A DNA stretch of 64,000 nucleotides, taken from Minisyncoccota bacterium. Lineage in GTDB: Bacteria > Patescibacteriota > Minisyncoccia > Phycocordibacterales > Zambryskibacteraceae. The notes under the pieces are model-generated. The model worked only from the letters and a program-made list of their open reading frames with translations, was not told the origin of the DNA and did not search any database. The DNA is taken from positions 27,821-91,820 of the forward strand of contig JAGVCW010000021.1 in the NCBI GenBank assembly GCA_020059045.1. Reading direction: 5' to 3'. A program made the position numbers and the translations under genes. Below, in pieces: positions 12,200 through 61,186 of this stretch; position 1 is the stretch's first letter; every line of letters starts with the position of its first letter.

Positions 12200-12217
12200 G
12201 TGCTGCGAGCAGTAGTA

Positions 12218-13486: not shown

Positions 13487-13515
13487 TTGACTTTTATAGA
13501 CCATTATGCTATTAT
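13487..13515 (+). promoter_or_regulatory. Sigma70-type promoter
   Basis: TTGACT (13487-13492), 17-nt spacer, TATTAT (13510-13515). Confidence 0.55.
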
Positions 13516-13564
13516 TATACAAGAACAGCAGTTTCACACACCGACCCTTTCACAAGGAGTTTGC

Positions 13565-31360: not shown

Positions 31361-34300
31361 ATGAAAAAGATTGTCATAGCAGTTATTTTGCTCGCAGTGT
31401 TGCTGTTGTCTGGTCCGATTTCGGCTCAAACCCTAGAAGCACAAACCATAAACGACATGTATGCGGTAGTGTTGTCGCTTCAAAACTTGATTCGTCAGTT
31501 AGTTGCGCTTGTTTCTCAGGGAGGAAATCTTGCGCAAGTTACGAACATAGTCACAGTAACTGGGTCAGTCTCTCCTGTACCAGTAACTCTTGGTGACCAG
31601 GCCAATCTTACATGGGACTCAACTAATACAACATCCTGTCTGCTTGATATAGGTACAGCAAACATAACAGGCCAGGCAGTGTCTGGCACATACACTGTGA
31701 CACCAACAAAGTCGATGGATTATATAGTCAAATGTACTGGATCGACTGGCTCAAAATTCGTAAAAGTCCCAGTAGTCGTGGTGGCAGCCTCAACTCCTTC
31801 CACCCCGTCCACTCCAGCAACTCCTTCCACCCCGTCCACACCATCTACTCCATCTACTCCATCTACACCATCTACACCATCTACACCATCAACACCAGCA
31901 ATTCCAAGTGGTCCAATAGTTTTACCAGATTTACCACAAACCTTTTCCGTGTCGGTTCCAGCTCAAACTGGAACAGTCATCTCAGTTCCGGCCGGGAACG
32001 CTGCAGCTTTTCAAGCGGCACTCAACAGTGCAGTCCTGGGTGATGTGATCGAGCTCCAAGCAGGCTCCACCTACACCGGAACATTTACGTTTCCCAATAA
32101 AACTTCTGGCAGCGGCTGGATTACAGTACGCTCCAGTGCCCACAACAGTCTCCCTCAAGGAATTCGAGTAGACCCCGGGGATGTTTCTAAAATGGCTAAA
32201 ATTATCACTAATGCCGTTGGATCAGGGGGGGCAGCATCAGGTTCTGCTATAATTTTTGCTAATAGTGCTCATCATTATTATCTACTAGGCTTAGAAGTGA
32301 CTGCGGCCACTGCAGCCAAGATTGCCACAGGTCCTACTATCCAGATGGACTTTACTACTCCTCTTTCTAATCAGCCCACGAACATTACACTCGATCGCAT
32401 GTATGTTCACGGTCATTCTAATTTAGACATGACCAGATGTATTCTAGCCAACGGTGCCTACATCGCTGTTATCAATAGTTATGTTTCTGAATGTCACTCT
32501 GGAGCGGATGCTCAAGCCATCGAAGTATGGACTGGATCTGGACCATTTAAATTTGTAAATAACCACCTGGAAGCGTCCGGCGAAAATATCATGTTCGGGG
32601 GTGCAGATCCCAAAGTGCAAGGACTCATTCCGTCGGACGCCGAAATTCGTGGAAATTATATTTATACTCCCATTGCCTGGGGGCCCTCGACTCCGTGGAC
32701 TAGAAAAAACTTATTTGAGACTAAAAATGCGCAAAGAGTACTTCTCGAAGGTAATATTCTAGATGGATCTTGGGCAGATGGGCAAGTGGGGTATGCTATT
32801 GTGCTCAAATCTTCAGATCAAGGAGGTGTTGGCACCGGGTGTACTTGGTGTGCATCAAAAGATATTACCGTAAGGTACAACATTATTCGCAATGCAGCCG
32901 GTACAGTGGATATAAGTGGAAAGCAAAACGCTATCGGTACTGCTCCGGCCCTTACCGAACGAATCCTAATTGAACACAACATTTTTGAAAATATTAATGT
33001 TGCCCCATACACCGGGGCTGCCCGACTGCTTAGTTTTAGCCTCGATGTGCGTGATCTTATATATAGGAATAACACTGTTAATACCACGGGCTATCTTCAG
33101 GGTATGATATTAGTGGGTGGAACTCCATCGAACTCTCTGAGTTTCCCGGGTGTCACAAACTTTGAATACAAGGACAATATCACTCCTTTTGGAGAATTCG
33201 GTATATTTGCCACTAACCTAATCGGGGAAGCCCTTTTTGCTGGCTCGCCAAACATTGCTGGTATCTCTAATTATTCGGGTAACGTGACTTACAACAATAC
33301 GTCAGCAAATAAGTACAATGCAACTACTCATCCCACGACTAAACTTTATTCAAGTTACAGCGCAGCAGTGGCCAGTGGTAAAGGCGCAAATACAGCGGCT
33401 GTGCTTGCGGCTACTAAGAATGCGCAAAACGGCGGAGGCGCTGGGACCCAGCCACCTCCTCCACCTCCTCCACCCCCGCCTAACACAACTGTTCCTACCC
33501 CTCCTTCTCCCGTTGCCATTACAACCTATGTTACACCTCCGGCAAACGGAGAGTCGACGCCTCCTTCTGCGGTAAAAAATTTACGTACTTGGGGAGTGTG
33601 CGACAACATGATCGGAGTTACTTGGGATCACGCTACAGATAATTACGGAGTGGCGGGTTATATTATTTCTCGAGACGGACAACCCTATACTATGACGGTG
33701 AGAAGTAGACCTCTCGGCACAACCGGAGGTGTTCCCAACAATACTGCCACCACCATAAGAAATTGGGTCACTGACTCCGGCCGGCAACCCAACACCTCGC
33801 ATTCTTACTCCGTGCAAGCGTTCGATACCTCCAACAACAAAGGCCCCGTGGCTACTTTCTCTGCCAAGACATCAACGGGCGGTTGTTTTGACCCGACCCC
33901 CCCAGTGCCGATGAATCTTAGACTTACAGGTTCGACATTAAATAGCGCGGGGTTAACTTGGGATCCCGTTACAGATTCCCGTTATAACGTAGTTCAATAT
34001 AGAATATATCTGGATTTTCCGCTCTTTACGCCTTTTCCTTTTCCCGCAGCACCTACATTTATGAATCCTGCTACTCCTCCTTTTGTCTATGGGAATCTTC
34101 CCTCAGCTCCTAGTCACAATTTCTTTGTTTCCTCTCGTAGCAACCTTGGTAAAGAGGGTGACTGGACTATGCCTCTTATTATGACTCCCGGTCAAACCAC
34201 GCCTGCTCCTACCGTGATGCTATCCGCTTCACCAAGCTCTGTGATTCCAGGTGGACAAACAATTCTCACCTGGTCTTCTACTAATGCAACAAGCTGTACC

Positions 34301-35746
34301 GCAAGCGGCGGGTGGTCTGGTTCGCAAGCTTTAGTCGGGACTCTTACAATCACACCCATAACAAGTTCACCATACACACTTTCATGTAGTGGAGCAGGTG
34401 GATCATCAATTAAATCAGTAACGGTTACTGTTGGTGGAATCATACCTCCACCACCAAACCCATTGTTTAGTATAGGAGATAGAGCAGAAACCACAGCTAA
34501 CCTAAATGTTCGATCTGGCCCAAGTGTCGATGCAACAGTTTTTGGTATCCAATCTCTTGGATCACTTGGCACCATTATTGAAGGACCAAGTATAGGTTCA
34601 ATTTACACTTGGTGGAATATTAACTTCGATGCGGGTGTAGATGGATGGAGTGCAGAAAGTTTCCTAAAGAAATCTACCATCTCGACACCACCTCCAGCTA
34701 GTCAACCCGTTGTTACTCTTTCTGTTTCACCTTCCACAATCACTTCTGGTTCGCCAGCAACTCTCACCTGGTCTTCTACTAATGCAACAAGCTGTACTGC
34801 AAGCAGTGGGTGGTCTGGTTCTAAGTCCACGTCTGGTGTGCATGGTATTGCTCCTGCTACAAACACTACGTATACACTCTCATGTAGTGGGGGAGGTGGA
34901 TCGTCAAGTAAATCTGTAACAGTCACAGTAATATCTACTACTCCAACTCCAACACCTAGTGATCCTACGCCTACTGACCCAACCCCGACTCCAACTCCAA
35001 CTCCTACACCTAATCCCGTTCCTACCCCAGGAGATGGCCAGGTATGTGCTCAAGTTGCAACATGGGCTAAAAGTCCATCAGGACAAATTAGGCAGTTCCC
35101 AAGTGCATGTATTCCAAGTGGTTGGGTCGTAATAGCATCTCCACTTATAGAAATTCCTAAAATTCCTACGACTCCAATTCCACCTGTTGGAGAGGTTCCT
35201 ACTATCCCAACAACTGAATCTCCAAGAACAGTTATTACTAAACAGCTTTACTTTGGAGTATCTGATCCCCAAGTTACAGCTCTTCAGATTTTCTTGAGGT
35301 CAAAAGGACTGTATTCAGATGACATTACTGGATTCTTCGGTACAAAAACTCTTCAATCTGTGCGTCTATACCAGACATCAAAGGGGATAGATGCGACAGG
35401 TGCTGTGGGCCCACAAACAAGAGCATCAATATCGGCTGAGACGACAGGTATCACTACGCCATCTACACCAACGACGCAAGCCCCAAGCGCACCTACGACC
35501 GGTTCGCTACCAAGAACACTGTATCGAGGTATATCAGGTAGTGATGTTTCATCTCTACAGACCATACTTATGAACCTGGGATATTACAATGACGAGATTA
35601 CAGGATACTTCGGTGTGAAAACGGAAGCGGCAGTTCAGGCATTCCAGAGAGCAAATGGAATAGTATCTTCAGGTAGTCCTGGTACTACTGGGTATGGGCT
35701 CGCAGGGCAACTAACAAGAGCAAAACTTATTGAACTAAGCCAATAA
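31361..35746 (+). CDS. Giant secreted cell-surface protein (1461 aa)
   Basis: Signal peptide, (S/A)TP repeat, parallel beta-helix-like repeats, a P10 run, and repeated LTWSSTNATSCTASGGWSG beta-domains. Also an SH3b-like NVRSGPS..WWNINF segment and two C-terminal peptidoglycan-binding-like repeats. Confidence 0.85.
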   Translation: MKKIVIAVILLAVLLLSGPISAQTLEAQTINDMYAVVLSLQNLIRQLVALVSQGGNLAQVTNIVTVTGSVSPVPVTLGDQANLTWDSTNTTSCLLDIGTANITGQAVSGTYTVTPTKSMDYIVKCTGSTGSKFVKVPVVVVAASTPSTPSTPATPSTPSTPSTPSTPSTPSTPSTPSTPAIPSGPIVLPDLPQTFSVSVPAQTGTVISVPAGNAAAFQAALNSAVLGDVIELQAGSTYTGTFTFPNKTSGSGWITVRSSAHNSLPQGIRVDPGDVSKMAKIITNAVGSGGAASGSAIIFANSAHHYYLLGLEVTAATAAKIATGPTIQMDFTTPLSNQPTNITLDRMYVHGHSNLDMTRCILANGAYIAVINSYVSECHSGADAQAIEVWTGSGPFKFVNNHLEASGENIMFGGADPKVQGLIPSDAEIRGNYIYTPIAWGPSTPWTRKNLFETKNAQRVLLEGNILDGSWADGQVGYAIVLKSSDQGGVGTGCTWCASKDITVRYNIIRNAAGTVDISGKQNAIGTAPALTERILIEHNIFENINVAPYTGAARLLSFSLDVRDLIYRNNTVNTTGYLQGMILVGGTPSNSLSFPGVTNFEYKDNITPFGEFGIFATNLIGEALFAGSPNIAGISNYSGNVTYNNTSANKYNATTHPTTKLYSSYSAAVASGKGANTAAVLAATKNAQNGGGAGTQPPPPPPPPPPNTTVPTPPSPVAITTYVTPPANGESTPPSAVKNLRTWGVCDNMIGVTWDHATDNYGVAGYIISRDGQPYTMTVRSRPLGTTGGVPNNTATTIRNWVTDSGRQPNTSHSYSVQAFDTSNNKGPVATFSAKTSTGGCFDPTPPVPMNLRLTGSTLNSAGLTWDPVTDSRYNVVQYRIYLDFPLFTPFPFPAAPTFMNPATPPFVYGNLPSAPSHNFFVSSRSNLGKEGDWTMPLIMTPGQTTPAPTVMLSASPSSVIPGGQTILTWSSTNATSCTASGGWSGSQALVGTLTITPITSSPYTLSCSGAGGSSIKSVTVTVGGIIPPPPNPLFSIGDRAETTANLNVRSGPSVDATVFGIQSLGSLGTIIEGPSIGSIYTWWNINFDAGVDGWSAESFLKKSTISTPPPASQPVVTLSVSPSTITSGSPATLTWSSTNATSCTASSGWSGSKSTSGVHGIAPATNTTYTLSCSGGGGSSSKSVTVTVISTTPTPTPSDPTPTDPTPTPTPTPTPNPVPTPGDGQVCAQVATWAKSPSGQIRQFPSACIPSGWVVIASPLIEIPKIPTTPIPPVGEVPTIPTTESPRTVITKQLYFGVSDPQVTALQIFLRSKGLYSDDITGFFGTKTLQSVRLYQTSKGIDATGAVGPQTRASISAETTGITTPSTPTTQAPSAPTTGSLPRTLYRGISGSDVSSLQTILMNLGYYNDEITGYFGVKTEAAVQAFQRANGIVSSGSPGTTGYGLAGQLTRAKLIELSQ
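31789..31900 (+). repeat. In-frame 9-bp tandem repeat encoding (S/A)TP units
   Basis: TCTACACCA-type units encode STPSTPATPSTPSTPSTPSTP... Confidence 0.85.
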
Positions 35747-41131: not shown

Positions 41132-41243
41132 GTCTCTATCATAGAGCAAAAGCACCCTGAGGGTGTTTTTGCTATTTCGCTCCCAGGTGGTTTACCACGA
41201 GCGAGCCTTCGACCTGGCTCAGGCCAGGGCGAAGCGAGTCGAG

Positions 41244-41678
41244 TGGAGATGGGCGGAATCGAACCGCCGTGCAATAGAAGAGATGAAAGATTTCTACAAG
41301 AGGTAGTTTGTTTCAATCTGCCTGTTGGCAGATATTTAGACTCTGTAAGTATGGAACAAACAAAATCTTACAAAGTCGAGCTTCTACATTTCGGAAACAA
41401 GCAAAGCAATTTGTTTCCAGAGTCTCAAGTTATTACGCGAGCAACTTGTTATGAGACATCACAAGTGCTAACGTCGCTTAGGCCGACCCAGACACCGAAG
41501 TGTCGGGTTAAGAGGCGTAAACGAAAGCGAAATCCTTAGCTCCAAAATATGGAGAAACTAGAGACCCAGCTTTTGCGACAATGCTGTTTGCAATTATCGG
41601 TTGTGGCGGATTTAAGAGTCACCACAGCTCTCCCTTGCATCTATCAAATGAATTCTACTGTCTAGGCCGATCATCCCC
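41244..41678 (-). ncRNA. ssrA: tmRNA
   Basis: 5' GGGGAUGAUCGGCCUAGACAG and 3' GGCGGUUCGAUUCCGCCCAUCUCCA. The acceptor stem GGGGAUG/CAUCUCC has the G3:U identity pair. smpB lies 350 nt away. Confidence 0.85.
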
Positions 41679-42023: not shown

Positions 42024-42467
42024 CTATTTATATTTCAAAGTTCTTCTCATCTCTCTCTCGGTCTCTCTTTTCTTTATACTCTGACGTTTGTCCCGTGTTT
42101 TCTTACCACGGGCTATGCCGATTGCTACCTTGATTTTTCTTCCTTTATTATACACCGAAAGTGGTACTACTGTCAAACCTCTTTGCCTCTCAGAATCCAT
42201 AATAGTTTTAATCTCAGCTTTGGTTAGCAGGAGCTTGCGGTTTCTTCTCGAATCATAACCTTTTGGGGTGTTCGCAGCCTGATAGGGAGGAATATCTGAG
42301 CCCACGAGGAATGCTTCATTACCTCGTGCGATTACGTGCGATCCGTCGAGTGACCCACGTTTCATGCGCAAAGCTTTAACTTCAAATCCAAGCAGCTCTA
42401 TACCCGCCTCGATTTTCTCGAGTATTTCGTAGTTAAACCCTACCTTTTTGTTCTCAACTAGTGACAT
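42024..42467 (-). CDS. smpB: SsrA-binding protein
   Basis: NKKVGFNYEILEKIEAGIELLGFEVKALR core. Confidence 0.93.
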   Translation of the reverse strand: MSLVENKKVGFNYEILEKIEAGIELLGFEVKALRMKRGSLDGSHVIARGNEAFLVGSDIPPYQAANTPKGYDSRRNRKLLLTKAEIKTIMDSERQRGLTVVPLSVYNKGRKIKVAIGIARGKKTRDKRQSIKKRETEREMRRTLKYK

Positions 42468-42873: not shown

Positions 42874-42960
42874 TCCCGGGGAATCGGGGTCATTTTTTAT
42901 TTATAATTTTCATAGCAAAATAAGTATATTTGTGTATAATTGCTCTCTAATATTAGCCAT

Positions 42961-44892
42961 ATGGCAACACAGAATCCTAAAAACAAAAAGCAGTTCAAGG
43001 TGGTAATGAAGAAGGACTGGAAGAGCCCGGGAAGCAGTTCTATGTGGAAGAACTTTCTGTCAGTCGTTCTCATTTTTTTAATTATTTCTACAATTTATTC
43101 AGCGTTAACTGAAGGCAGTCAAGAGGCACTTCAGATTCCCATTTCAGAATTAGCTCGCGATGTGAACCAAGAGCTTGTTCTAAAAGTAGTGGTTGAAGGT
43201 GATGAGGTGAAAGCAGAATACAAGTCAGGAGAGATAAAGGATACTAAGAAGGAAGAGGGTATCGCACTCACTGAGACACTCGTAAGATATGGTGTAACGC
43301 CAGAGAAGCTTCTGGGTCTCAATATTGAAATAGTAAAGGAGAGTGGTTTCATGTTTTGGCTTTTGAATCTTTTGCCGATAATTCTGCCAATTCTCTTCAT
43401 TGTTTTTTTCATTTGGTATTTATCTCGCCAGGTCAAGGGTGCTGGGATGCAAGCATTTACATTCGGCCAATCCAAGGCTCGTCTCATACCGCCAAACGAC
43501 AAGAAACAGAAAGTAACTTTCAAGGATGTTGCCGGGGTCAAGGAAGCAAAGCAAGAGCTCACCGAGATCGTAGATTTTCTTCGAAATCCTAAAAAGTTTT
43601 TAGACATTGGAGCACAGATTCCAAAAGGAGTACTGCTCATGGGTGCCCCAGGAACAGGTAAAACTTTGCTTGCTCGAGCTGTAGCGGGAGAAGCAAACGT
43701 GGCTTTCTTTTCTATATCTGGTTCTGAGTTCGTAGAAATGTTTGTAGGAGTTGGAGCTTCGCGTGTACGTGACCTTTTTCAGCTTGCCAAGCGTGCAGCA
43801 CCCGCGATTATTTTCGTTGATGAGATAGATGCTGTAGGACGAGTGCGAGGAGTGGGTGCGGGTGGTGGTAATGATGAAAGGGAACAGACTTTGAACCAGA
43901 TTCTAGTTGAGATGGACGGTTTCGAGCCAAATGAGAAAGTTATTGTGATGGCAGCGACCAATAGACCGGACGTTCTAGACCCTGCACTCCTGCGTCCTGG
44001 CCGATTCGACAGGCGCGTTGTTATAGATCTGCCAGACCGAGCAGAAAGAGAAGAGATTCTCCATATTCACTCACGGCAAAAACCTTTTGGTGAAGACGTA
44101 AAATTGAATGTAATAGCTGAGAGAACACCAGGATTTTCTGGTGCAGACCTCTATTCACTTATGAATGAGGGTGCGATACTTGCTGCACGTGAAGATAGAA
44201 CGAAGATTTCTCAGTTTGATCTGATTCGCTCTATTGAGAAGGTGATCCTTGGCCCGGAGCGAAAGAGCCATATCTTGTCTCTCAAAGAGAAAGAGATCAC
44301 CGCGTATCACGAAGCCGGTCATGCACTTGTCTCATCAGTTCTTGATTATGCCGACCCAGTGCACAAAATTTCAATAATTTCTCGTGGCAGAGCTGCTGGC
44401 TACACTCTCAACTTGCCAATAGAAGATCGCAAGCTTCAGTCTAAGAAAGAGTTTCTAGATGATATAGCTATGGCTCTCGGTGGCTATGTTGCTGAGCGTA
44501 CTGTCTTTGGTGATCTTACTACTGGTCCATCCAATGATCTCCAGGTTTCCACGGGCCTTGCACGTGATATGGTGACCAAGTATGGAATGTCTGAAAAGAT
44601 TGGCCCCATAGCTCTAGAGGAGCCAACAGGCAGGGTGCTCTTTGGTAAAGGTCTTGAAGATAGGGAATACTCCGAGAAGGTAGGTGCAGAGATTGACGGA
44701 GAAGTCTCAAAAATTATGAAGGAAGCCCTAGAGCGCGCAGAGAAGGTGATTGGTGAGTACAGAAAAGCACTCGATGCTATTGCCAAGCGACTGATAGAAG
44801 TAGAAACTATAGAGAGGGACGAGTTCGAGCTTATTTTAATCGCTCATGGCATTACTCCCAAGAAGAAAAAAGATATAGAACATCAAGTTTAA
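42961..44892 (+). CDS. ftsH: ATP-dependent zinc metalloprotease FtsH
   Basis: Walker A GAPGTGKT, the SRH region, and HEAGHAL zinc motif. I set the start to ATG 42961. Confidence 0.96.
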
Positions 44893-44898: not shown

Positions 44899-45756
44899 AT
44901 GAGATCATTTGAAGCGGAAAGCTTACATAATGCAGATATAGATAGGTTTTACCAGAAAGCTACAGAAAGGTTAGCAGCGGGAGGTTTTAAAGAAGAAGAA
45001 TTTATCGATCCGTATGGGGAGCAAACAGTGGGGGCAGACTTAATTGAAGTTAAGAAAAGAGAAGCGGTACATAATCGCACAAGAGACGAACAGACAGAAG
45101 AGCAGAAAAAAGTCGCAGATATATTTGAAGCAATTGTACTTGAGGTTGGAGAACTCAACGAATGGTGGGGCAGCAATGCCTTCATTTTGCAAACCTCTAA
45201 GTATGATGATTATGTTAATGGAGTTGATGCGGTAATTGAATTTAGAGTTGAAGATCCTAAATCTGCCTCGTACTTAGGTCTTGCAACTGACGTCACGTTT
45301 TCTGGAGATACAGGAGACAAATTTTTAAGAATTTTCAGCCAGATTGACAGTGGAAATCTTACAAAAGTTAAATATTTCCACTCTAAGCATATGGGCATAC
45401 ACGGGCCGCTAAGTGACTTGCCCAAGGTGATAATTGGTGCGCATAGAGAAACTGTTCTTGAGGTTGCAGAAAAATGGATTGCAGGGAAATACAATGCTCT
45501 AGCAAGACACAAACTCCAAATAATGATTCTTCTGCAAACAGTTGAGCAGCTAAGAGTATTTCGAAATTATGCAAAAAAAATAGGCAAAGAAGATCTTGTA
45601 CGGATTTATTCAGAACGAATTACTGTAGTGGAGAGAATTCTGGAAGAAAAGAAAGATATTTATAATCAAGTAAAAAGTGATTTAAATGATGATAATGTTC
45701 ATTACTCAATTATGGATTTCCTGAAAAGGAAACAAAGGGAGATAGACCAAATGTAA
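44899..45756 (+). CDS. Hypothetical protein
   Basis: 285-codon ORF starting 6 nt after ftsH. No motif. Confidence 0.55.
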   Translation: MRSFEAESLHNADIDRFYQKATERLAAGGFKEEEFIDPYGEQTVGADLIEVKKREAVHNRTRDEQTEEQKKVADIFEAIVLEVGELNEWWGSNAFILQTSKYDDYVNGVDAVIEFRVEDPKSASYLGLATDVTFSGDTGDKFLRIFSQIDSGNLTKVKYFHSKHMGIHGPLSDLPKVIIGAHRETVLEVAEKWIAGKYNALARHKLQIMILLQTVEQLRVFRNYAKKIGKEDLVRIYSERITVVERILEEKKDIYNQVKSDLNDDNVHYSIMDFLKRKQREIDQM

Positions 45757-45839
45757 TAATTTTGGCAGCTTGGGCTAGGTGCTTGTCATTCGCATCAATG
45801 TTGCTATTCTGTACTTAGAATCGAGCCCTCGAGGTGCAA

Positions 45840-46013
45840 ATGGACGTAACTCTCTTGCTCGAGTATTGGAAGCTTATGGAAAGAGAGAAAGAGCTTGCCG
45901 ATATGGGGCAAGCAGAGTCAAAAATAAATGTTCGTAAAGAGCAAATACAAAAAGCTCTTGTGTCTACTCATGAAGAGATTGTAGAGAAAATTGAAGAACT
46001 GCATGTATCCTAG
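45840..46013 (+). CDS. Small helical ORF (57 aa), below the ORF-track cutoff
   Basis: ATG follows GAGGTG. The product is MDVTLLLEYWKLMEREKELADMG... A terminator-like hairpin and T-run follow. Confidence 0.35.
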   Translation: MDVTLLLEYWKLMEREKELADMGQAESKINVRKEQIQKALVSTHEEIVEKIEELHVS

Positions 46014-46174
46014 CTACGTACTCGCACAACCCAAGGTGTGAGTTTTTGTTTCAATTTTTATACATCTTAACCCACCCCGCATAATTTATTACCCTATTCG
46101 TACGAATAAGACCAGTAGATTTTGTTTTATATATAGAAGGAATTAGCAAGGAATCATTGCTTTAATTTTCCGTT

Positions 46175-46693
46175 TTAGTGTTCACTACTTTCAAGTAATG
46201 AAGACTCTCTATCTTGAATTCTTATAAACGGAGTGAATATGACACCTGCTAGGAGTATACCGAGAGAGTTGCTTATAAGATCAAGCCAAGTGTCGTTTAT
46301 TGTTGTCGCCATTACGAGATTAGTATAGTTTTGAAGGAAAAATTCGAAAATCTCGTTTCCTACTCCGAGTGCAGTTACGACAAGTGCAGTAAATACTAAA
46401 AATTGGAATCTACTTACTTTTGCTCCTGAATCTTTTACAGCAAGAAAGCAAATGAGAAATGCGGCGAATCCTCCTGCAAAGCCATGCTGAATCCTGTTGG
46501 CTATTTCGCGATCCGGAGTTAGATACACGATTGCGAAAGCTACAACACAGAACAAAACTATAATTCCAAGTGATCGAGAAGTGTTGCCATCTCTCATGTT
46601 CATTTCGTTATCGTTTGCAAAAAACTTAGAGAAGAGATATCTAAGAGGGAAGTAGGCAATACAGTATGTAATTGTAGTTAAAATTGAAAACAT
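46175..46693 (-). CDS. Polytopic membrane protein, paralog of 29543..29932
   Basis: I set the start to ATG 46693, right after the ABC-gene stop. GNEIFEF and NDTWLDLISNSLG motifs. Confidence 0.55.
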   Translation of the reverse strand: MFSILTTITYCIAYFPLRYLFSKFFANDNEMNMRDGNTSRSLGIIVLFCVVAFAIVYLTPDREIANRIQHGFAGGFAAFLICFLAVKDSGAKVSRFQFLVFTALVVTALGVGNEIFEFFLQNYTNLVMATTINDTWLDLISNSLGILLAGVIFTPFIRIQDRESSLLESSEH

Positions 46694-46694
46694 A

Positions 46695-48443
46695 TTATTC
46701 TTCTCGTACCGCACTCTGCTGTCTCCACAAGGCCGAGTAGAGACCGTTTTTTGAAAGCAGCTCCACGTGACTACCAGCTTCGGACAAGCTGCCCTTTTCG
46801 AGAACATATATTGTATCAGCGTGTGCGATTGTTGACAGCCTATGAGCAACCATCACTATTACAAGATCAGGTTTGGTCTTTGCAATGTCTTGTATTGTTT
46901 TTGTAATCTCTTTTTCTGTAATCGAGTCTAGACTAGATGTCGCCTCGTCAAATATTATTAAGTCAGGATTTCGTAGTAGCGCTCGTGCAATGGCAAGTCT
47001 TTGGCGTTCCCCACCAGAGACCTTTATGCCACCTTCACCAATCTTTGTATCAAGTCCCTCTGTACTCCGCTCAATAATAGAAAGCACTGCCGCACCACGT
47101 AGAGCCTCCAAGCACTCTTCATCACGAGCTTTCGGATTTACGAAGAGCAAGTTTTCGCGAATGGTGCCTGCGAAGAGCTGAGTTTCTTGTGATACGTATC
47201 CTATGCGACGACGGAGAAGGTCGTAATCAATATTTTCTCCAGAAATATTATTAACTAACACTGTGCCTTCTGTGGGTTTATACAAGCCTACAAGTAGTTT
47301 AATCGTTGTAGATTTTCCAGATCCTGATGGTCCGACGAAAGCAGCTACTTCTCCCTTCTTAATTTTGAAAGTTAAATCTTTAACCGCAGGGCTATTGCCT
47401 GTTGCATGAGTGAACCCAACCCGCTCGAACCGAATACTATCGAGTGCCCCAAGCGTTGTTGGATTTTCTGGTTTTACCTCTGGCTTTTGTTTCAGTATGT
47501 CATCGAGCTTCTCCATACTTGCACGAGCTTCCTGGAAAATGTTTGCAACGGTTCCAAGCTCGCCAAGCGGTCCAAATACGAAGAAAAGATATATGTATAG
47601 ACTGAAGAATTCTCCAAACGTAATGAGCTTCTCATAAATGAGGTACATCATTATAAGAAGTAAGACTGACCGGATAGCGTTTATGAGTGTGCCCTGTACG
47701 AAGCTAAGAAGACGAATGACTTTGATCTTTCGTAGCTCAAGAGATAATATTTTTTTATTTACTATATTGAGTCGATCTGTTTCTTGGTTTTCAAGCCCTA
47801 GAGATTTTACAAGTTCTACATTGCGCAATGTTTCTGTTGTCGATCCTGAGAGAGCGGCCGTTTCTGTCACGATCTCTTTCTGCATTGCCTTTATGCGTCG
47901 CGTAAGGAAAAAGGTTACAGTTCCAACAGTAGGAATGATAAGAATATACATGAGCCCCACAAGCCAGTGAACATAGAAACCGTATCCTACTACGAAGATA
48001 ATAGAAACAAGTGGTAGAAAAATAATTCCGACAGCGGCACCTATGAGCTGTTCAGAATCCTTACGAGCCTTCTGAAGCTTTTGTAATAGCTCACCAGATC
48101 TTTCATCTTCGAATGCGGCATAGGGGAGAGAGAATGAATGCGCAACACTTTTTTCATACATTGTTGCACCCACTCGCTGAGTTACCGTGCTTAAGTAGTA
48201 GTCTTGAAAGTTTTTCGCGACTCTTGAGACAAAAGCTACACCGACGGATGCAAGAAGCAGGAGTATTATTCCCTGGAAGAATTCTTCCCGGGGTATCTCA
48301 AAGGCTCGAGACGCATAGTTGTCTACAATAAGTCTGAAAATCTGAGGGTCAAGAAGTGAGAAGACTTGGTTAATGGTTGCAAGAACAAGCGCGAAAGTAA
48401 GCATCACTTTCTGCTCCTTTAGGTATACAAGAAGTTGTCGCAT
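46695..48443 (-). CDS. ABC transporter, fused permease and ATPase (exporter type)
   Basis: Six-TM N-terminal domain, Walker A GPSGSGKST, signature VSGGERQR, Walker B LIIFDEATS. The start is ambiguous (48443-48476). Confidence 0.9.
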   Translation of the reverse strand: MRQLLVYLKEQKVMLTFALVLATINQVFSLLDPQIFRLIVDNYASRAFEIPREEFFQGIILLLLASVGVAFVSRVAKNFQDYYLSTVTQRVGATMYEKSVAHSFSLPYAAFEDERSGELLQKLQKARKDSEQLIGAAVGIIFLPLVSIIFVVGYGFYVHWLVGLMYILIIPTVGTVTFFLTRRIKAMQKEIVTETAALSGSTTETLRNVELVKSLGLENQETDRLNIVNKKILSLELRKIKVIRLLSFVQGTLINAIRSVLLLIMMYLIYEKLITFGEFFSLYIYLFFVFGPLGELGTVANIFQEARASMEKLDDILKQKPEVKPENPTTLGALDSIRFERVGFTHATGNSPAVKDLTFKIKKGEVAAFVGPSGSGKSTTIKLLVGLYKPTEGTVLVNNISGENIDYDLLRRRIGYVSQETQLFAGTIRENLLFVNPKARDEECLEALRGAAVLSIIERSTEGLDTKIGEGGIKVSGGERQRLAIARALLRNPDLIIFDEATSSLDSITEKEITKTIQDIAKTKPDLVIVMVAHRLSTIAHADTIYVLEKGSLSEAGSHVELLSKNGLYSALWRQQSAVREE

Positions 48444-48538
48444 GGCACCCATAATACAGCAATACCAAGTACCCACAAAATATTTATGATAACAAAACTA
48501 CTCCGTCACGCCGTGACGGAGTAGTTTTGTTATAGAGC

Positions 48539-48739: not shown

Positions 48740-48802
48740 AATTTCTTTCTAATTAATAATTTGAAACTACGTTTAGTATATCAAGTTATGCAAGAATATT
48801 TG

Positions 48803-48876
48803 TCCACCCTCCACGATTTGAACGTGGGACCCTCGAGGTATAAGCTCGATGCTCTAACCAACTGAGCTAAGGGTGG
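48803..48876 (-). tRNA. tRNA-Ile with a genomically encoded UAU anticodon
   Basis: Hand-folded cloverleaf: CCACCCT ta GCTC agttggtta GAGC a TCGAG CTTATAC CTCGA gggtc CCACG ttcaaat CGTGG AGGGTGG a. No CCA is encoded. Confidence 0.8.
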
Positions 48877-49053
48877 TATAGCGCTCAAATACTATATCAA
48901 ATATGGAAATCCTTCAATTATTACAGTCGTGCGGTTAAGTGTCCCAGCTATCCACAACGTGAGTATTCACATTGTTATAACCTAAGGGTATACTTCTAAT
49001 CAAGTTGCGGTCCTGTCTTGAAACCTTATTTATTCTTAACTTCTCTTAATAAT

Positions 49054-52000
49054 ATGTTCTCTAAAAAATTGCCATTAGTAATTGGTTTTGTTTTTGCTTT
49101 TCTTTTTATTGGACTATCTGTAGATGCACAAACTACTTCTCTAAGTTTGACGAGAAACCTAAGTTTTGGTTCTAGCGGCACAGACGTCAGCTCTCTCCAA
49201 CAATTTTTAATATCACAAGGACATTTGTCTTCTGGGAACGCCACAGGTTACTTTGGCCCCTTGACTCAAGCTGCCGTGCAAAGCTTTCAGCGAGCGCAAG
49301 GGATCGTTACTACAGGAACTGTTCAGACAACTGGGTACGGTTTAGTGGGCATACGAACACGTGCAGCCTTGGCTACATTTACGGGAGCTCAAGGCACCTT
49401 TACGCAGAATGCTACTATTGGTACTACTTTTAATACCGCAGTTTCTACGACTCTACCCCCGACCGTGGATCTAAAAGTTAATGGTTCGGATGGGCCTGTC
49501 TTGTTGCCTCCGTCTATTTCGATACAAGCCCACCAACAAGCAAACTTATCCTGGTCCTCGACTAACGCTACCAGTTGTACTGCATCGGGGGGTTGGAGTG
49601 GTACCCAAAAAACTTCAGGCAGTCAGTCATTTAAACCAACAGTAAATACTCTATATATAATTACATGTACAGGATCGGGTGGAAGTGCTAGCGATGAAGT
49701 AACTGTAAATAAAATTGGGGCCCCAAGCTCAAGCATGTTTAATCTCGGGGAAGACGTTGAAACTATTTATAGTAGCGGAAATATTTTTAATTATCCCGCT
49801 CCTGACCCCAGGGGAGGTCAAAGTATGTTTGGCGGTGTAAAAGGTAGAGTTGTTGGGGGTCCAGCGGCAGGCACATGTTGTGGCCATATTTTTTGGCATG
49901 TGGATTATGTAAACGGAATGAAGGGGTGGACCGAAAAAGATAATCTTAAAAAAGCTATCATTAATTCTACCTATACTCTTTCAAATATGGGAGATGTGAT
50001 TGTAACGAAAACCAACTTCACCCAGGCTAAGATAGTTACTTTTACAATGACTGCGATTTCTGGTAAACCCGTAGTATCAGCCGTAATAAGCTCTTCCCTG
50101 CCATCTGGCGTAACAGTCAGTCCTGATCATTATAACTCTGGTAGTCATAACGCTTGTGGCGCAGACCCAAGTGCCGCAGACCCAACTTGTTCGCATAAAC
50201 CTGTTTTTTCCATAGCTAGTAACGCGGCTACCGGAGTCTTCCCAGTTACTCTGACTACTTATGGTCCCAGCGCTCCTACAGAAACCAGCACATTTAATCT
50301 GCATATTCTTCCCGCTGGAACGGCTGTTCCCACCGTATCTCTAAAAGCTAACAACACACCTGGCACACTTTCTATCACTAACGGTACCCAGATCTCTCTC
50401 ACTTGGGACTCAACCAATGTTACGAGTTGTGACCTTAGTGGAGACGGCTGGAGTGGCACAAAATATGCGGCCAAAATGCCAAGTCCAGGATTCTCTGCTA
50501 TACCGCTATCCAATAAAACCACCACATACATTATTATTTGTTCTGATGTTGCCGGCCAAAAGAGCGCGCCGAGCACGGTGGTGGTCACGACCACGGCCGG
50601 TTCTCAAACTAACAAATTTAACCAAAATGATAAGGTTGAAACCAATGCTGATGCTGTAAACGTTCGATCTACGCCGAATGGTAATCCTCCTATAGATTCT
50701 AAAAGCAAAGGAGCTAAGGGCGTGATTATGTGGGATGCTACGACAAGCGCAGGGGGTCATAATTGGTGGGAGATCAACTACGATACAGGAAAAGACGGCT
50801 GGACTGCGGAGCAGTATCTTAATCTTATATTGTCTACAGCTACTCCGCCTCCGCCACCAGGTACCCCAACAGTCGAACTTAAAGCTAATAACACTCTTGG
50901 CTCACTTTCTGTCACTAACGGTACCCAGATTTCTCTCACTTGGGTCTCCACGGATGCTACCGGTTGCGCCCTTAGTGCCAACAGCTGGAGCAGTACGAAC
51001 TTTTCGGCCCAGATGGGAAGTCCAGGATTCACTACTACTCCGTTGTCTAATACCACTACCACTTATACTATCACTTGCTATGATGCAAATGGCGTGAAAA
51101 GTGCACCAAGTACTGTAGTGGTGACAACAACTGGCTCAAGTAATACATTTAAAGACGGAGATACGGTGGAGGTGACAAACACGACCACTTCAGTCAATGT
51201 CCGCTCTTCTGCAAACGGAACAGTAATTGGCACTCAGCCACTTGGGGCTCTAGGATTAATTAAAGGTACAAGTATTAACTCTGGAGGATACGACTGGTGG
51301 AATGTGGATTACGTTCACGCCCCTGACGGCTGGACCGCAGAGCAGTTTCTTCAAAAGAATGCCGGAGGAATCCCAAGTTCCAGCAGAGTGAGTCTTCAAG
51401 CCACTCCAAATTCAGTGGCAGTCAATACCCCTGTTCTCCTTATCTGGGCACTTAGCAACTGGCCCACCAGCAGTCCCACTACTACATGTAATGCGACCGG
51501 TGGCACGGCGGGATGGCCCGGTACAAAATACGGTTTTATGACCGGCGGACAAGCTGTAGTTACTCCTACAACTGCTGGTACTCACACTTTCAACATTGAC
51601 TGTAGCGGTTATAAAGACTCGGTGACTGTGACGGTGACTACTGCGGGTTCAACCAACAAACCTCCAGTCGCGAATGCTGGCCAAGACAAAACAATCACTC
51701 TACCCACGAGCTCCGTTTCTGTGGTGAGCCCTCCAGTCGACGCAACCGATCCTGATGGTTCAAGCGACATAAATACCCATACCTGGTCTTTCGTCTCTGG
51801 TCCTGCTGGTGTTACTCCAGGCATCGCCGCTCCCGGCAACAAGAACAGTACTTTTTCTGGTCTTACTGTTGCAGGTACCTACACTTTCCGCTTCACCGTG
51901 GAAGATAAAGGGGGACTCAGGGCAACCGATGACATGAATGTAGTTGTTTTAACAAGTGGCACGCAGTCATCGGGTCCAGTTGTCGATCTAAAAGCAAATG

Positions 52001-53538
52001 GTTCAAACGGACCAGTAACTCTTTCAAAGGGTGATTCGGTTCAGTTTTCTTGGACGGGATCCAACTTAGTAAATTCTTGTTCCATTAAGGACGAAAATAA
52101 TAGCACTATATCTGGGGGGACAGGACTCAATCCTTTGGGGGGTACTCTCACTCTAGTAAATCTTACTTCTACACACACCTATACAATTACTTGTTTTACA
52201 AGTAACAACAGTACTGCAACTGATAGCGTGACGGTAATTATTTCTGGAGTATTCACAACCCCAGTTGTAGATCTCAAAGCAAATGGCTCAGACAATCCTA
52301 TAACGCTTACTGCGAACCAAGATCTTACTTTGAGTTGGACAATACAAGGAGTGTTACCAACTTGCTCATTGCGTGGTTGGGGAGTGTCCGGCTCTAATTC
52401 ATCTGGCTATGTTGAACTCTCTTCTAAAGTATTAATCGGTTCAGCATTCACTATTACCCCAACTACTGCAGGCTATCCGACTGCTGCTGGCAATATGTAC
52501 GAGATCAACTGTACAGTTTCTGGAGCAGTCACAAAGTACGATCGAGTAATAGTGACGGCAGCAGCGGTAACACCTCCAGGAGGAGGGACTACTGCATCTC
52601 CAGTAGTAACTTTATCTGCTAGTTCTGGCTCTGTAGCCGATGGTCAATCTGTTGCTCTGACTCTCACTTCTCAAAACGCTACTTACTGCACAGGAAATGT
52701 TTTTTCTGACAACAGAACTTCTGGCACGGCATATGTTGTTCCTCCCTTTGGCGGAAATACTAGCGTGGGCTACTCTGTAATATGTTACAACGGTCTTGGC
52801 GGCCCATCTAAAACTGCCTCCGTAAACGTCACCAAGTCAACGTCTGGAGGCTCACCCTCTAGCGGGGCACCGACACTTGATTTCAAAGCTGATAACTCTA
52901 AGGGGCCACTTTCTGTAGGAACTTCCGGGTCTGTATATCTCAGCTGGTCAACAACAAATGTATCTAGCTGTACGTTGAGTAATGCTGGAATATCGTACGT
53001 TTCACTTCCTAGTGGTTTCTGGAATGCAACTCCAAGTAGCTACACTTCGAAAGTCATATACACTATGAGCTGTACTGGGACAAACGGCGCTTCTATATCA
53101 GAATCAATCACCGTATATCCTGTCTACACTACAGTAAGCGTCAACAGTAGCTATCCTCTACCAAAAACTACTTATACGCTACACAATTCCCAAGACCTTA
53201 ACTTGGCTTGGAGTGCCCCAAATCTTCCAGCAGATGCACACTGTGATCTCACTTCACCTGTTAGTCTTACAAACCCCGCAGGTCAGAAGACCGGATCATG
53301 GAAGTTTACATCTACATCAACAAACTATCCTCCAAACAATGTGAGCAGCTGGTATTCACCTGGAATTGTCTACACTGTTACATGTAGTAATTCTGGCGGC
53401 ATCGTAGGCATGGCCACGGCCAATATTCTTCTTGACCCAAATACTACGAGTCTCAATAGCTCTAGTTCAAACCAACTAGCTGCTATATTTTCAGCCATAC
53501 AAAACATTTTGGCTGAGCTTAGTCTATCTGCTCGGTAG
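49054..53538 (+). CDS. Giant secreted cell-surface protein (about 1494 aa)
   Basis: Signal/TM segment, an N-terminal peptidoglycan-binding-like repeat, and many LSWSSTNATSCTASGGWSG-type beta-domains. Also SH3b-like NVRSTPNG..WWEINYD segments and a PKD-like PPVANAGQDKTITLP domain. Confidence 0.85.
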   Translation: MFSKKLPLVIGFVFAFLFIGLSVDAQTTSLSLTRNLSFGSSGTDVSSLQQFLISQGHLSSGNATGYFGPLTQAAVQSFQRAQGIVTTGTVQTTGYGLVGIRTRAALATFTGAQGTFTQNATIGTTFNTAVSTTLPPTVDLKVNGSDGPVLLPPSISIQAHQQANLSWSSTNATSCTASGGWSGTQKTSGSQSFKPTVNTLYIITCTGSGGSASDEVTVNKIGAPSSSMFNLGEDVETIYSSGNIFNYPAPDPRGGQSMFGGVKGRVVGGPAAGTCCGHIFWHVDYVNGMKGWTEKDNLKKAIINSTYTLSNMGDVIVTKTNFTQAKIVTFTMTAISGKPVVSAVISSSLPSGVTVSPDHYNSGSHNACGADPSAADPTCSHKPVFSIASNAATGVFPVTLTTYGPSAPTETSTFNLHILPAGTAVPTVSLKANNTPGTLSITNGTQISLTWDSTNVTSCDLSGDGWSGTKYAAKMPSPGFSAIPLSNKTTTYIIICSDVAGQKSAPSTVVVTTTAGSQTNKFNQNDKVETNADAVNVRSTPNGNPPIDSKSKGAKGVIMWDATTSAGGHNWWEINYDTGKDGWTAEQYLNLILSTATPPPPPGTPTVELKANNTLGSLSVTNGTQISLTWVSTDATGCALSANSWSSTNFSAQMGSPGFTTTPLSNTTTTYTITCYDANGVKSAPSTVVVTTTGSSNTFKDGDTVEVTNTTTSVNVRSSANGTVIGTQPLGALGLIKGTSINSGGYDWWNVDYVHAPDGWTAEQFLQKNAGGIPSSSRVSLQATPNSVAVNTPVLLIWALSNWPTSSPTTTCNATGGTAGWPGTKYGFMTGGQAVVTPTTAGTHTFNIDCSGYKDSVTVTVTTAGSTNKPPVANAGQDKTITLPTSSVSVVSPPVDATDPDGSSDINTHTWSFVSGPAGVTPGIAAPGNKNSTFSGLTVAGTYTFRFTVEDKGGLRATDDMNVVVLTSGTQSSGPVVDLKANGSNGPVTLSKGDSVQFSWTGSNLVNSCSIKDENNSTISGGTGLNPLGGTLTLVNLTSTHTYTITCFTSNNSTATDSVTVIISGVFTTPVVDLKANGSDNPITLTANQDLTLSWTIQGVLPTCSLRGWGVSGSNSSGYVELSSKVLIGSAFTITPTTAGYPTAAGNMYEINCTVSGAVTKYDRVIVTAAAVTPPGGGTTASPVVTLSASSGSVADGQSVALTLTSQNATYCTGNVFSDNRTSGTAYVVPPFGGNTSVGYSVICYNGLGGPSKTASVNVTKSTSGGSPSSGAPTLDFKADNSKGPLSVGTSGSVYLSWSTTNVSSCTLSNAGISYVSLPSGFWNATPSSYTSKVIYTMSCTGTNGASISESITVYPVYTTVSVNSSYPLPKTTYTLHNSQDLNLAWSAPNLPADAHCDLTSPVSLTNPAGQKTGSWKFTSTSTNYPPNNVSSWYSPGIVYTVTCSNSGGIVGMATANILLDPNTTSLNSSSSNQLAAIFSAIQNILAELSLSAR

Positions 53539-53622: not shown

Positions 53623-55782
53623 CTATTCAAAATGGAATTGTTTGCGCTTCTCATCTATTTGATTTTTCAAAATGGGATATTTTTTAAGCTCTGGGTCTTC
53701 TTCAATAAGTTTTCCTGCTTCAAGTCGAGCAGCTTCAACCATCTTCAGATTTTTTATTGCTTCCATTCCTATATCAGAGAGCCCCCACTGCTTGCGACCG
53801 TAGAGCTCGCCTGCACCTCTCTGCACAAGGTCGAACTCGGCAAGCTCAAAGCCACTTTTTGCAGTGCGAAGTGCTTTGAGACGATCCATACTCTTACCAC
53901 TCTTTGTCTCAGAAAATATATAGCAGTAAGGTTGGTGTGAGCTTCGCATTACTCGCCCGCGAAGCTGGTGAAGCTGAGCAAGACCAAATCTTTCTGCCCC
54001 TTCAATTATGATTATTGTGGCATTTGGAACATTTACTCCAACTTCAACAACAGAAGTTGAAACCAAAATATTTATTTTTCCATCCTTAAAGTCGTTCATG
54101 ACTTCATCCTTCTCCCCAGGTTTCATTTTGCCGTGCATGACCCCAACTTGAAATTCGGTAAAAACATCTTTTTTAAGACGCTTTGCTTCTTCTGTAACAG
54201 ATTTTGCAATCAAAGCCATTTCCCGAGTAGGGTCTGGTTCATCAATACGAGGGCAAATCACGTATGCTTGGCGACCAGACCTTAGCTCTTTACGTATTTT
54301 TTCGTACACTTGGCCTCGAGTATTTGGCAATACAATTTCTGTAATAGGCCATTTACGACCAGGAGGTAGCTCATCAAGTAGTGAAAGATCGAGGTCCCCA
54401 TAGACAGTTAGGGCCAGTGTGCGGGGTATGGGGGTCGCAGTCATGCTCAAAAGGTGGGGGATGACTCCACCTCTCTCTCTAAATTTCTGCCTCTGTGTGG
54501 TTCCAAATTTGTGTTGTTCGTCGATAATTGAAAAAGCAAGATGTTTAAATTTAACGCTTTTCTGGATAAGAGTGTGAGTGCCAATAAGTATTGGTATCTC
54601 GCCACTTGCGACCCACTTGAGGAGCTGGGAACGAGAGATGTTTGTCGCACCAAGCGGATTTATTTTGGACGGAAACTTCCTTGCACCACTTCCGGTGATG
54701 AGGCCCACCTGAACTCCAGTATATGCAAAGTATTTAACAAATGACTCAAAGTGTTGCTCAGCCAAGATTTCTGTTGGAACCATGTATGCAACCTGAAGGT
54801 TCCCAAAGTCCTGATTCTTCGGCTTTGTGGAGATTACAGCGAATGATGCGGTGGCGGCGACAGCAGTTTTCCCACTTCCCACATCTCCTTCGAGAAGCCG
54901 AGCCATAGGCACACCCTTCTTGAAGTCATCTAGAATATGGTTTACAGATTTTTTTTGGGCTTCTGTAAGAGGGAAGGGAAATCTGCTGATAAAGTCCGTT
55001 AGTTCACTAAATTTTTTAGAGATCTCAAATGAATCATGTTGTTGCCAAAGTTTGCGACTCTTGTGTTTCTCAAGTTGAATGAAGAATACTTCTTCAAATG
55101 CAAACCGTTTACGTGCTGAGAGTGCATCGTCTTTGTTCTTCGGAGTGTGGATCCATATGAGAGCAGTTTTAAGTGTAGGAAGATTGTATTTTTTTAAAAT
55201 ACTTTCAGGTATGGGGTCCACCAGCTCATCAAGCAATCCTGATTTGAAAACTTTTTGGATTGCATGGAATATCCAGTTGGATGTTACACCACGGGTTTCA
55301 GGGTAGACAGGGTATAGGTAGTGGTCCTCGTTACCTTCACCAAATAGTGAAGTTGCCCCAGTGTGAAGTGGAAGCTTCGCAATATTTTCTATCTTCGGGT
55401 TAGAAAGATAGAGCTCTCCTTTTCTCTCCGAAACTTTTCCTTCGGCACGGACAAAGCTGCCATCCTGAAGCATTTTTGCCAAGTATGGCTGATTGAACCA
55501 AACAACCTTTATACTTCCAGTCTCATCTTCAAGCATACCTTCAGCCATAGGGATTTTCTTCTTCCATGCTTTCTTCATTTTGAGCCCAGAAATTTTCCCA
55601 AATATTACTGCCGCTTCTCCTCGAGCCAAGCTTTCTATAGATTTAATTTCTGAGGTGTCTCCATACCGGCTGGGGAAGTAGTGGAGAATGTCCTCGACAG
55701 TTAGTATGTCAATCTTCTTAAGAGCCTTTTGTTGAGGAGGAAGAATGCGTAGGTGATCCGTAAGTATAGAATCATTTTTCAT
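53623..55782 (-). CDS. recG: ATP-dependent DNA helicase RecG
   Basis: GDVGSGKT, DEQHKFG, SMTATPIPRTL, and QLHQLRGRV. Confidence 0.93.
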   Translation of the reverse strand: MKNDSILTDHLRILPPQQKALKKIDILTVEDILHYFPSRYGDTSEIKSIESLARGEAAVIFGKISGLKMKKAWKKKIPMAEGMLEDETGSIKVVWFNQPYLAKMLQDGSFVRAEGKVSERKGELYLSNPKIENIAKLPLHTGATSLFGEGNEDHYLYPVYPETRGVTSNWIFHAIQKVFKSGLLDELVDPIPESILKKYNLPTLKTALIWIHTPKNKDDALSARKRFAFEEVFFIQLEKHKSRKLWQQHDSFEISKKFSELTDFISRFPFPLTEAQKKSVNHILDDFKKGVPMARLLEGDVGSGKTAVAATASFAVISTKPKNQDFGNLQVAYMVPTEILAEQHFESFVKYFAYTGVQVGLITGSGARKFPSKINPLGATNISRSQLLKWVASGEIPILIGTHTLIQKSVKFKHLAFSIIDEQHKFGTTQRQKFRERGGVIPHLLSMTATPIPRTLALTVYGDLDLSLLDELPPGRKWPITEIVLPNTRGQVYEKIRKELRSGRQAYVICPRIDEPDPTREMALIAKSVTEEAKRLKKDVFTEFQVGVMHGKMKPGEKDEVMNDFKDGKINILVSTSVVEVGVNVPNATIIIIEGAERFGLAQLHQLRGRVMRSSHQPYCYIFSETKSGKSMDRLKALRTAKSGFELAEFDLVQRGAGELYGRKQWGLSDIGMEAIKNLKMVEAARLEAGKLIEEDPELKKYPILKNQIDEKRKQFHFE

Positions 55783-61079: not shown

Positions 61080-61106
61080 GTTCAAAGTTGCCAATCTGGC
61101 GGAGAG
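61080..61106. repeat. 27-bp att-like core, copy 1 (tRNA-Ser 3' end plus 17 nt of downstream flank)
   Basis: GTTCAAAGTTGCCAATCTGGCGGAGAG is identical to 62654-62680. Confidence 0.9.
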
Positions 61107-61186
61107 AGTGGGATTCGAACCCACGGTTCCGGTAAAGGAACGACGGTTTAGTAAACCGTTGATTTAAACCACTCATCCATCTCTCC
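61097..61186 (-). tRNA. Class II tRNA (Ser-type long variable arm); anticodon loop UUACUAA reads ACU
   Basis: GGAGAGA tg GAT gagtggtttaa ATC a ACGGT TTACTAA ACCGT, variable arm cGTTCCtttaccGGAACc, GTGGG ttcgaat CCCAC TCTCTCC g CCA. Confidence 0.8.

Follow-up and report, generated by a model that had tools for sequence, protein, structure and literature searches.

The gene at positions 48803-48876 (minus strand) of the window, as the whole 64,000-nt stretch of DNA analysed is termed here, very probably specifies a functional elongator tRNA-Ile whose UAU anticodon, encoded as such, reads AUA directly, and which is an old housekeeping gene of its lineage. Reading AUA as isoleucine without also misreading AUG as isoleucine is a classic decoding problem. 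With UAU encoded, conversion of a CAU-anticodon tRNA by TilS to the lysidine form is needed neither for identity nor for decoding. Textbooks, and papers as late as 2025-2026, treat TilS and lysidine as nearly universal in bacteria, and the native UAU anticodon as a rare exception (PMC11947777; bioRxiv 10.64898/2026.02.03.703510). That rarity does not hold for this phylum, in which the window gene, a 'tRNA-Ile3(UAU)' of the Mycoplasma mobile type, is ordinary. What is apparently new is how widespread UAU tRNAs are among CPR bacteria, where their position is syntenically fixed, and the existence of a C1:G72/C38 subfamily in Paceibacteria; literature searches found neither the CPR-wide UAU tRNA nor the Paceibacteria subfamily described.

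The tRNA gene and its isoleucine identity

The 74-nt gene, with C1:G72 and A73, is delimited by ARAGORN, Rfam, sequence and family covariation. ARAGORN calls a minus-strand tRNA-Ile at 48802-48876, anticodon tat, one more base (48802) being included at the 3′ end, and Rfam RF00005 matches 48803-48876 of the same strand over the full model (1-71) with 67.1 bits (gathering score 29, E=1.9e-12). In RNA sense it reads CCACCCU UA GCUC AGUUGGUUA GAGC A UCGAG CUUAUAC CUCGA GGGUC CCACG UUCAAAU CGUGG AGGGUGG A, with stems of 7, 4, 5 and 5 bp, U8, a T-loop UUCAAAU and an anticodon loop CUUAUAC that provides C32, U33, A37 and C38. The anticodon, UAU, is at 48840-48842 of the minus strand (ATA on the plus strand), as placed by sequence and by ARAGORN (anticodon position 35). 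The bases following A73 are CAA, so no CCA is encoded. The first-pass annotation had described a canonical hand-folded cloverleaf (7/4/5/5 stems, U8, U33, TTCAAAT loop), an anticodon UAU within the loop CTTATAC, a C1:G72 pair and the absence of encoded CCA; the ARAGORN call, which it had suggested as a check, the Rfam score and the minus-strand sequence bear all of this out, the strand, which it had left unstated, being the minus. The single-sequence minimum free energy fold is not a cloverleaf in the D-arm and anticodon region (z = -3.1), as is common among unmodified tRNA sequences, and it is covariation across 102 distinct homologues, not that fold, that establishes the cloverleaf. About 41 nt upstream of the 5′ end, a sigma-70-like match (GGGACA-17-AATAAT with a TG extension; 48917-48945, minus) is, on its consensus match, a possible promoter of the tRNA's own in a region with five such sites where 2.4 are expected.

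Features of isoleucine type are present as a set in A73, A3:U70, C4:G69, C5:G68, U12:A23 and A37. According to Silva et al. (PMC1635315), G3 or A3, and never C3:G70, distinguishes Ile-type from Met-type tRNAs, and C4:G69 together with C5:G68 is typical of tRNA-Ile(CAU). Throughout the family described below, position 3:70 is G:C, A:U or U:A and never C:G (0 of 102 unique sequences), C4:G69 is present in 73 of the 102, and the D-stem pair U12:A23 in all of them. At 29:41 the window tRNA has G29:C41, unlike the E. coli IleRS element C29:G41. Two other assignments were considered and set aside. A tRNA-Ile2(CAU) serving as a lysidine substrate is ruled out by a DNA anticodon of TAT, and an elongator or initiator tRNA-Met (CAU with C3:G70, and in the initiator C1xA72 and A11:U24) by UAU, A3:U70, a paired C1:G72 and C11:G24. 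The earlier proposal of an isoleucine tRNA with a native, genome-encoded UAU is thus supported, by A73, A3:U70 instead of C3:G70, C4:G69, C5:G68 and U12:A23.

The UAU tRNA family across genomes

A pattern combining the D-arm with the CUUAUA anticodon loop was scanned against one genome per species (185,579 species) and matched at least 120 loci. Among the 120 matches listed, at least 74 carry CPR or Patescibacteria labels in their record titles. They span Saccharibacteria/Nanosyncoccus, Collierbacteria, Dojkabacteria and Peri-/Peregrinibacteria, and, within Paceibacteria/Parcubacteria, Nomura-, Taylor-, Zambryski-, Kaiser-, Uhr-, Magasanik-, Falkow-, Moran- and Doudnabacteria. Another 28 comprise 17 unlabelled MAGs and 11 with the doubtful label 'uncultured Gammaproteobacteria'. 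About 18 are non-CPR (Ignavibacteria, Dormibacterota, Chloroflexota and others), including one match each from Planctomycetota, a chlamydia, Bacilli and Clostridiales and three from archaeal MAGs. ARAGORN calls tRNA-Ile(tat) in essentially all of the 120 loci listed. The closest copy among them, in Candidatus Nomurabacteria GW2011_GWE2_34_25 (L081), is identical to the window tRNA at 71 of 74 positions.

All 116 intact, in-register copies are 74 nt long and all have A73. Among the 102 sequences that are distinct, standard pairs fill 99.4% of stem cells, as against 40-45% on displacing the 3′ partner by one or two positions, and most positions of the acceptor, anticodon and T stems display three to five pair types, which amounts to abundant compensatory change. 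C1:G72 is found in 32 intact copies including that of the window, 28 of the 32 having the loop CUUAUAC (C38), and encoded CCA is absent from 25 of 31 C1:G72 copies, as it is in the window. The rest of the family is mainly G1:C72, its loops divided between CUUAUAA and CUUAUAC.

Published tallies are small. Nine species without tilS were counted by Taniguchi et al. (PMC3575796), UAU tRNAs were tallied in 19 species in tRNADB-CE (PMC4013482) and in 17 genomes by tRNAscan-SE 2.0 (PMC8450103), and a 2026 preprint still has them as 'rare cases' (10.64898/2026.02.03.703510). The first-pass statement that a native UAU anticodon is known from only a few lineages accords with that literature (9-19 species), but is outdated by at least 120 species-level loci, at least 74 of them CPR-labelled. 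With so many CPR-labelled loci and a conserved syntenic slot, a UAU gene is the lineage norm here.

One locus (L076) holds both a 5′-half remnant of a G1-type tRNA(UAU), adjoining recG (2228-2270), and, about 100 nt downstream of the remnant, an intact C1:G72 tRNA(UAU) at 2367-2439 with a shorter D-loop (GCUCAAUGGUAGAGC). Together they hint at gene turnover inside the slot, and since the search pattern does not match that D-loop, it undercounts the family. As to the doubtful labels, the 11 'uncultured Gammaproteobacteria' MAGs with CPR-type UAU tRNAs are L001, L014, L026, L039, L054, L055, L066, L087, L109, L110 and L117; the tRNAs of L014 closely match those of two loci titled 'Patescibacteria group' (L002 and L056), one of the eleven, L087, is a chromosome of 0.93 Mb, and the labels look unreliable.

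The body of the tRNA was also sought with the other anticodon. When metagenomes were scanned for this C1/C4/C5 acceptor and D-arm combined with CAU, at least 120 loci matched, many of them C1:G72/A73 tRNAs with the loop CUCAUAA. C1:G72 therefore also occurs outside UAU genes, and the architecture is compatible, as far as sequence goes, with an Ile2-like ancestry. No orthologous replacement of CAU by UAU was found, none of the 120 CAU loci listed being near ftsH, recG or smpB. In L207 (1155-2528), the one locus among those listed with a TilS-like ORF alongside, a C1:G72 tRNA(CAU) is followed in order by a tRNA-Lys, a 233-aa ORF with a PP-loop/TilS N-domain and a tmRNA-like gene whose tag is long. 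This metagenome contig is phage-like in its content (DNA methylase, PcfJ, HNH) and may represent a phage-borne kit for AUA decoding; as an ancestral CPR state it was rejected because of that phage-like gene content.

The slot between ftsH and recG

The window, at about 42% GC, has fusA at its left edge, a ribosomal-protein cluster with L3, L4, L2 and S3, and secY, adk, map, ndk, an RNase J-like beta-CASP protein and infC. Further along are smpB beside tmRNA, then ftsH, an MsbA-like ABC exporter, recG and guaA, with many ORFs lacking a family match. Next to the tRNA, ftsH is at 42940-44892 on the plus strand (Pfam Peptidase_M41 and AAA), recG at 53623-55782 on the minus strand (Pfam RecG_wedge/DEAD/Helicase_C), and smpB, divergent from ftsH, at 42024-42467 on the minus strand (Pfam SmpB). 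A 438-nt tmRNA (41241-41678, minus; Rfam RF00023, 101.5 bits) was missed by ARAGORN, which called tmRNAs of 379-421 nt in several relatives.

tblastn with the window proteins reveals a conserved order of tmRNA/smpB, divergent ftsH, tRNA-Ile(UAU) and recG. Within an 8-kb slice, among the 120 loci listed, ftsH is found in 40, recG in 27 and smpB in 20, and a tmRNA is near the tRNA(UAU) in L013, L027, L037, L050, L061, L068, L073, L084 and L101. In relatives the usual place of the tRNA is directly downstream of ftsH: in 16 loci the two share a strand and at most 132 nt separate the end of ftsH from the tRNA, and in about 12 more the tRNA is at most 900 nt downstream; it is on the strand of recG in a minority of loci, the window included. 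In all, about 45 genomes have an orthologous tRNA in synteny. The FtsH orthologues in the loci from Nomura-, Taylor- and Zambryskibacteria and other Paceibacteria share 65-76% identity with that of the window. These relatives and the gene content of the window place the host in Patescibacteria (CPR), as a bacterium of Paceibacteria/Parcubacteria type nearest to genomes like those of Nomurabacteria and Taylorbacteria. A different context, unlike the Paceibacteria ftsH-recG slot, has tRNA-Ile(UAU) paired with tRNA-Val(GAC) and adjoining valS, the gene for ValRS, in loci that are Uhrbacteria-like, Falkowbacteria-like or related (L095, L074, L053, L045, L034, L026, L022).

The immediate surroundings of the tRNA in the window are of another kind. 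The interval from ftsH to the tRNA contains a lineage-specific insertion (44899-48476) with no tblastn counterpart in the syntenic loci; as characterized with Pfam and NCBIfam, it comprises an orphan 285-aa ORF (plus), an orphan 224-aa ORF (minus) and the MsbA-like ABC exporter at 46695-48476 (minus). On the other side, between the tRNA and recG, is the gene for a 1506-aa surface protein (49018-53538, plus; Pfam PG_binding_1 and PKD-like) which has internal repeats, 254 nt and 48 nt long, and whose counterpart is absent from the slots of relatives by tblastn. A second giant protein (1461 aa, PG_binding_1) is encoded at 31361-35746 on the plus strand, and both giants are surface proteins specific to the lineage, of a sort typical among CPR episymbionts. 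Elsewhere in the window the ribosomal-protein operon is itself broken, at 10187-14155, between L2 (9226-10065) and S3 (15249-15929), the break holding a MYG1/UPF0160 gene on the minus strand (10187-11155) and three ORFs without a Pfam match (11426-12199, 12473-13441 and 13487-14155).

With both flanks of the tRNA absent from relatives (ABC exporter, orphan ORFs, giant surface protein), and with tRNA genes often serving as integration sites, the gene could be taken for a pseudogene, or for mobile-element or phage cargo beside lineage-specific genes, instead of a core gene. That is very improbable for a tRNA which is intact in the window (67 bits, Rfam), and which is orthologous and syntenic across genomes as described. 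The 3′ 21-mer of the tRNA has a single match in the window, with up to three mismatches allowed, so that its 3′ end is not duplicated; relevant direct repeats were absent, and the flanking genes gave no match to an integrase family (Pfam/NCBIfam). A tRNA-linked integrative element was accordingly rejected, there being neither att duplication nor integrase, and the flanking genes are to be seen as inserted around a resident tRNA. The tRNA itself would then be an old, vertically inherited housekeeping gene between ftsH and recG.

AUA decoding and the question of TilS

Examination of AUA usage, suggested in the first-pass annotation, disclosed a heavily used codon. In 21 confident genes of the window (9,668 codons) ATA makes up 220 of 721 isoleucine codons (30.5%), or 22.8 per 1000, and is commoner than ATC and than ATG (17.3 per 1000). 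On the scale of Muraski et al. 22.8 AUA per 1000 is 'high' (PMC12514573). With AUA a major codon, its tRNA is needed in quantity.

The meaning of AUA was assessed from the codons that relatives have at window AUA positions in alignments of FtsH (33 genomes) and RecG (22 genomes). These positions align to AUU in 19%, AUA in 17% and AUC in 15% of cells (51% together), followed by leucine and valine codons, and to AUG in 1.1%, while window AUG positions align to AUG in 61.5%. The profile is the same as that of window AUU and AUC positions. Since AUA positions align as AUU and AUC positions do, with AUG in only 1.1%, AUA on this sequence evidence is isoleucine, not methionine, in this lineage.

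AUA is a methionine codon in many mitochondria. A C1:G72 pair is atypical for bacterial tRNA-Ile, and UAU might in principle pair with AUG by wobble, so reassignment or mischarging, with the UAU tRNA carrying methionine or another amino acid and AUA not being isoleucine, is a conceivable alternative. It has only a minute probability in the face of AUA positions that exchange with AUU and AUC, are indistinguishable from them and have AUG at the 1.1% level, and of an acceptor signature (A73 with G3 or A3) that is Ile-type, not Met-type (PMC1635315). A suspected oddity of stop codons was likewise rejected. TGA terminates none of the first 21 genes but 5 of 61 non-overlapping window ORFs and 23 of 123 ORFs in relatives, and is an ordinary, if less used, stop and not a recoded codon.

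In the preferred reading, isoleucine decoding by a native UAU anticodon, IleRS would charge the tRNA, as judged from A73, the Ile-type acceptor stem, A35-U36 and A37, and CCA would be added post-transcriptionally. The encoded UAU would read AUA by Watson-Crick pairing, U34 with the A of AUA. Rejection of AUG, by analogy with M. mobile, may involve competition with tRNA-Met, the ribosome together with the anticodon-loop context (C32/C38), or both. The UAU tRNA would be the main, and probably the only, AUA decoder of the lineage.

A broader proposal, for which the chances fall slightly short of even, is that Paceibacteria, and perhaps much of the CPR, gave up TilS and lysidine altogether. AUA would be read only by the inherited tRNA-Ile(UAU), with C1:G72 and C32/C38 as adaptations for charging and for rejection of AUG, and the ftsH link would mark the site of the replacement. 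Next to ftsH is where tilS, or tilS-hpt, is situated in many bacteria. Beside ftsH in the window and in relatives are smpB or short orphan ORFs, with neither tilS nor hpt. Pfam finds no TilS (PF01171) domain in about 40 window ORFs. ORFs with an SGGxDS PP-loop, sought in the window and in about 0.9 Mb of the loci of relatives, proved to be GuaA only, and tblastn with E. coli TilS, a distant query that makes for a weak negative, yielded no match in the window and the 120 loci listed. Neither of the two tRNAs that ARAGORN finds in the window has a CAU anticodon, and no tRNA-Ile2(CAU) was seen beside ftsH in relatives or in the 0.9 Mb of their loci. These searches covered the 64-kb window and the loci of relatives, and for the genome as a whole it is an even call whether tilS is truly absent. 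Literature searches found no paper linking the CPR with lysidine or tilS.

The competing possibility, somewhat less probable than that absence yet to be taken seriously, is that the genome also retains tilS and tRNA-Ile2(CAU), with AUA read redundantly by LAU and UAU tRNAs. This would correspond to what Taniguchi et al. call a 'transition state', exemplified by Lactobacillus casei and L. plantarum, and double systems are known in these two and in Cyanothece and Ferrimonas (PMC3575796). The search for tilS and Ile2 extends over 64 kb of this genome, and the natural C1:G72/A73 tRNAs with CAU imply that the same type of body can be a TilS substrate. Weighing on the other side are the failure to find tilS in the window, beside ftsH or in the roughly 0.9 Mb of relatives' loci, the lack of any CAU orthologue in the slot (ftsH, recG and smpB are near none of the 120 CAU-version loci listed), and the heavy use of AUA. 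Retention at one syntenic position, with only compensatory changes, in dozens of species-level lineages would also be unexpected for a redundant gene. Deep syntenic conservation under purifying selection and heavy AUA use thus argue that the UAU tRNA is not a dispensable duplicate.

The first-pass annotation took a native UAU to imply changes in IleRS and in the modification system; an IleRS able to recognise U34 would be expected to have Arg or Lys at the position of E. coli Trp905, or to be of eukaryote type (type 2). The IleRS that tblastn with the E. coli enzyme seemed to place beside tRNA(UAU) in L095, L074 and others is ValRS by its Pfam Val_tRNA-synt_C domain, and no ileS is present in the window or in any retrieved locus. 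CAU tRNAs adjacent to UAU genes in some CPR loci, considered as tandem Ile2 duplicates, are of initiator and elongator types with unrelated bodies.

Of known systems the closest in kind is the tRNA-Ile2(UAU) of M. mobile, which shares the encoded UAU, AUA as isoleucine, heavy AUA use and a small genome (PMC3575796, PMC1635315). M. mobile lost tilS from a position adjoining ftsH (PMC1635315), and in the window nothing TilS-like is beside ftsH. The M. mobile case is one species, recent within Tenericutes, with a tRNA body resembling tRNA-Ile(GAU), whereas the window gene, with its C1:G72 acceptor and C38 loop, belongs to a deep family spread over many CPR classes. For M. mobile, unmodified U34, an adaptation at Arg865 of IleRS and ribosomal discrimination against AUG are experimental findings (PMC3575796), the CPR tRNA being known from sequence. 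Replacement of Ile2(CAU)/TilS in whole genera has a likeness in the 'tRNA-Ile3(UAU)' of Bifidobacterium and Neorickettsia (PMC8450103), where IleRS is of eukaryote type (PMC3575796). In L. casei/plantarum, Cyanothece PCC 7424 and Ferrimonas balearica, where a UAU gene and tilS coexist, the occurrence is sporadic and at the level of species, in contrast to the clade-wide, syntenic CPR gene. The canonical tRNA-Ile2(CAU) with TilS has in common with it the task of reading AUA as isoleucine, G3 or A3, C4:G69, C5:G68, the D-arm and A73, and differs in that the window anticodon is encoded as UAU and needs no modification of C34.

A native UAU for AUA is also the archaeal and eukaryotic solution (Nanoarchaeum, Korarchaeum; PsiAPsi), but those tRNAs often have introns and in eukaryotes are pseudouridylated, while the window gene is bacterial and intronless. 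The archaeal MAG matches in the UAU scan are L025, L034 and L094. In L094 the gene matching the pattern (3094-3246, minus; Rfam 58.9 bits) was missed by ARAGORN, and from its 153-nt span it contains an intron.

Should CPR-wide loss of TilS be borne out, native-UAU decoding would be normal across a large part of bacterial diversity instead of a peculiarity of some 20 species. TilS would then not be valid as a universal essential gene or drug target for that part of the tree, and CPR bacteria, some of them co-culturable, would constitute a natural system for studying the handling of an A/G-ambiguous U34 by IleRS and by the ribosome. For annotation, a TAT-anticodon tRNA in a CPR MAG is acceptable and not suspect.

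A separate observation concerns serine. At 61097-61186 on the minus strand is a tRNA-Ser(ACU) with A34, the loop UUACUAA and encoded CCA; codon use in the window is 14.8 per 1000 for AGU and 9.2 per 1000 for AGC. Deamination of this A34 to inosine, if it occurs, would extend its reading to AGA (arginine). The same distinctive D-arm and anticodon arm recur in the closest relative, L081 (4623-4710, minus), with compensatory changes in the acceptor stem, and there the gene adjoins a normal tRNA-Ser(GCU).
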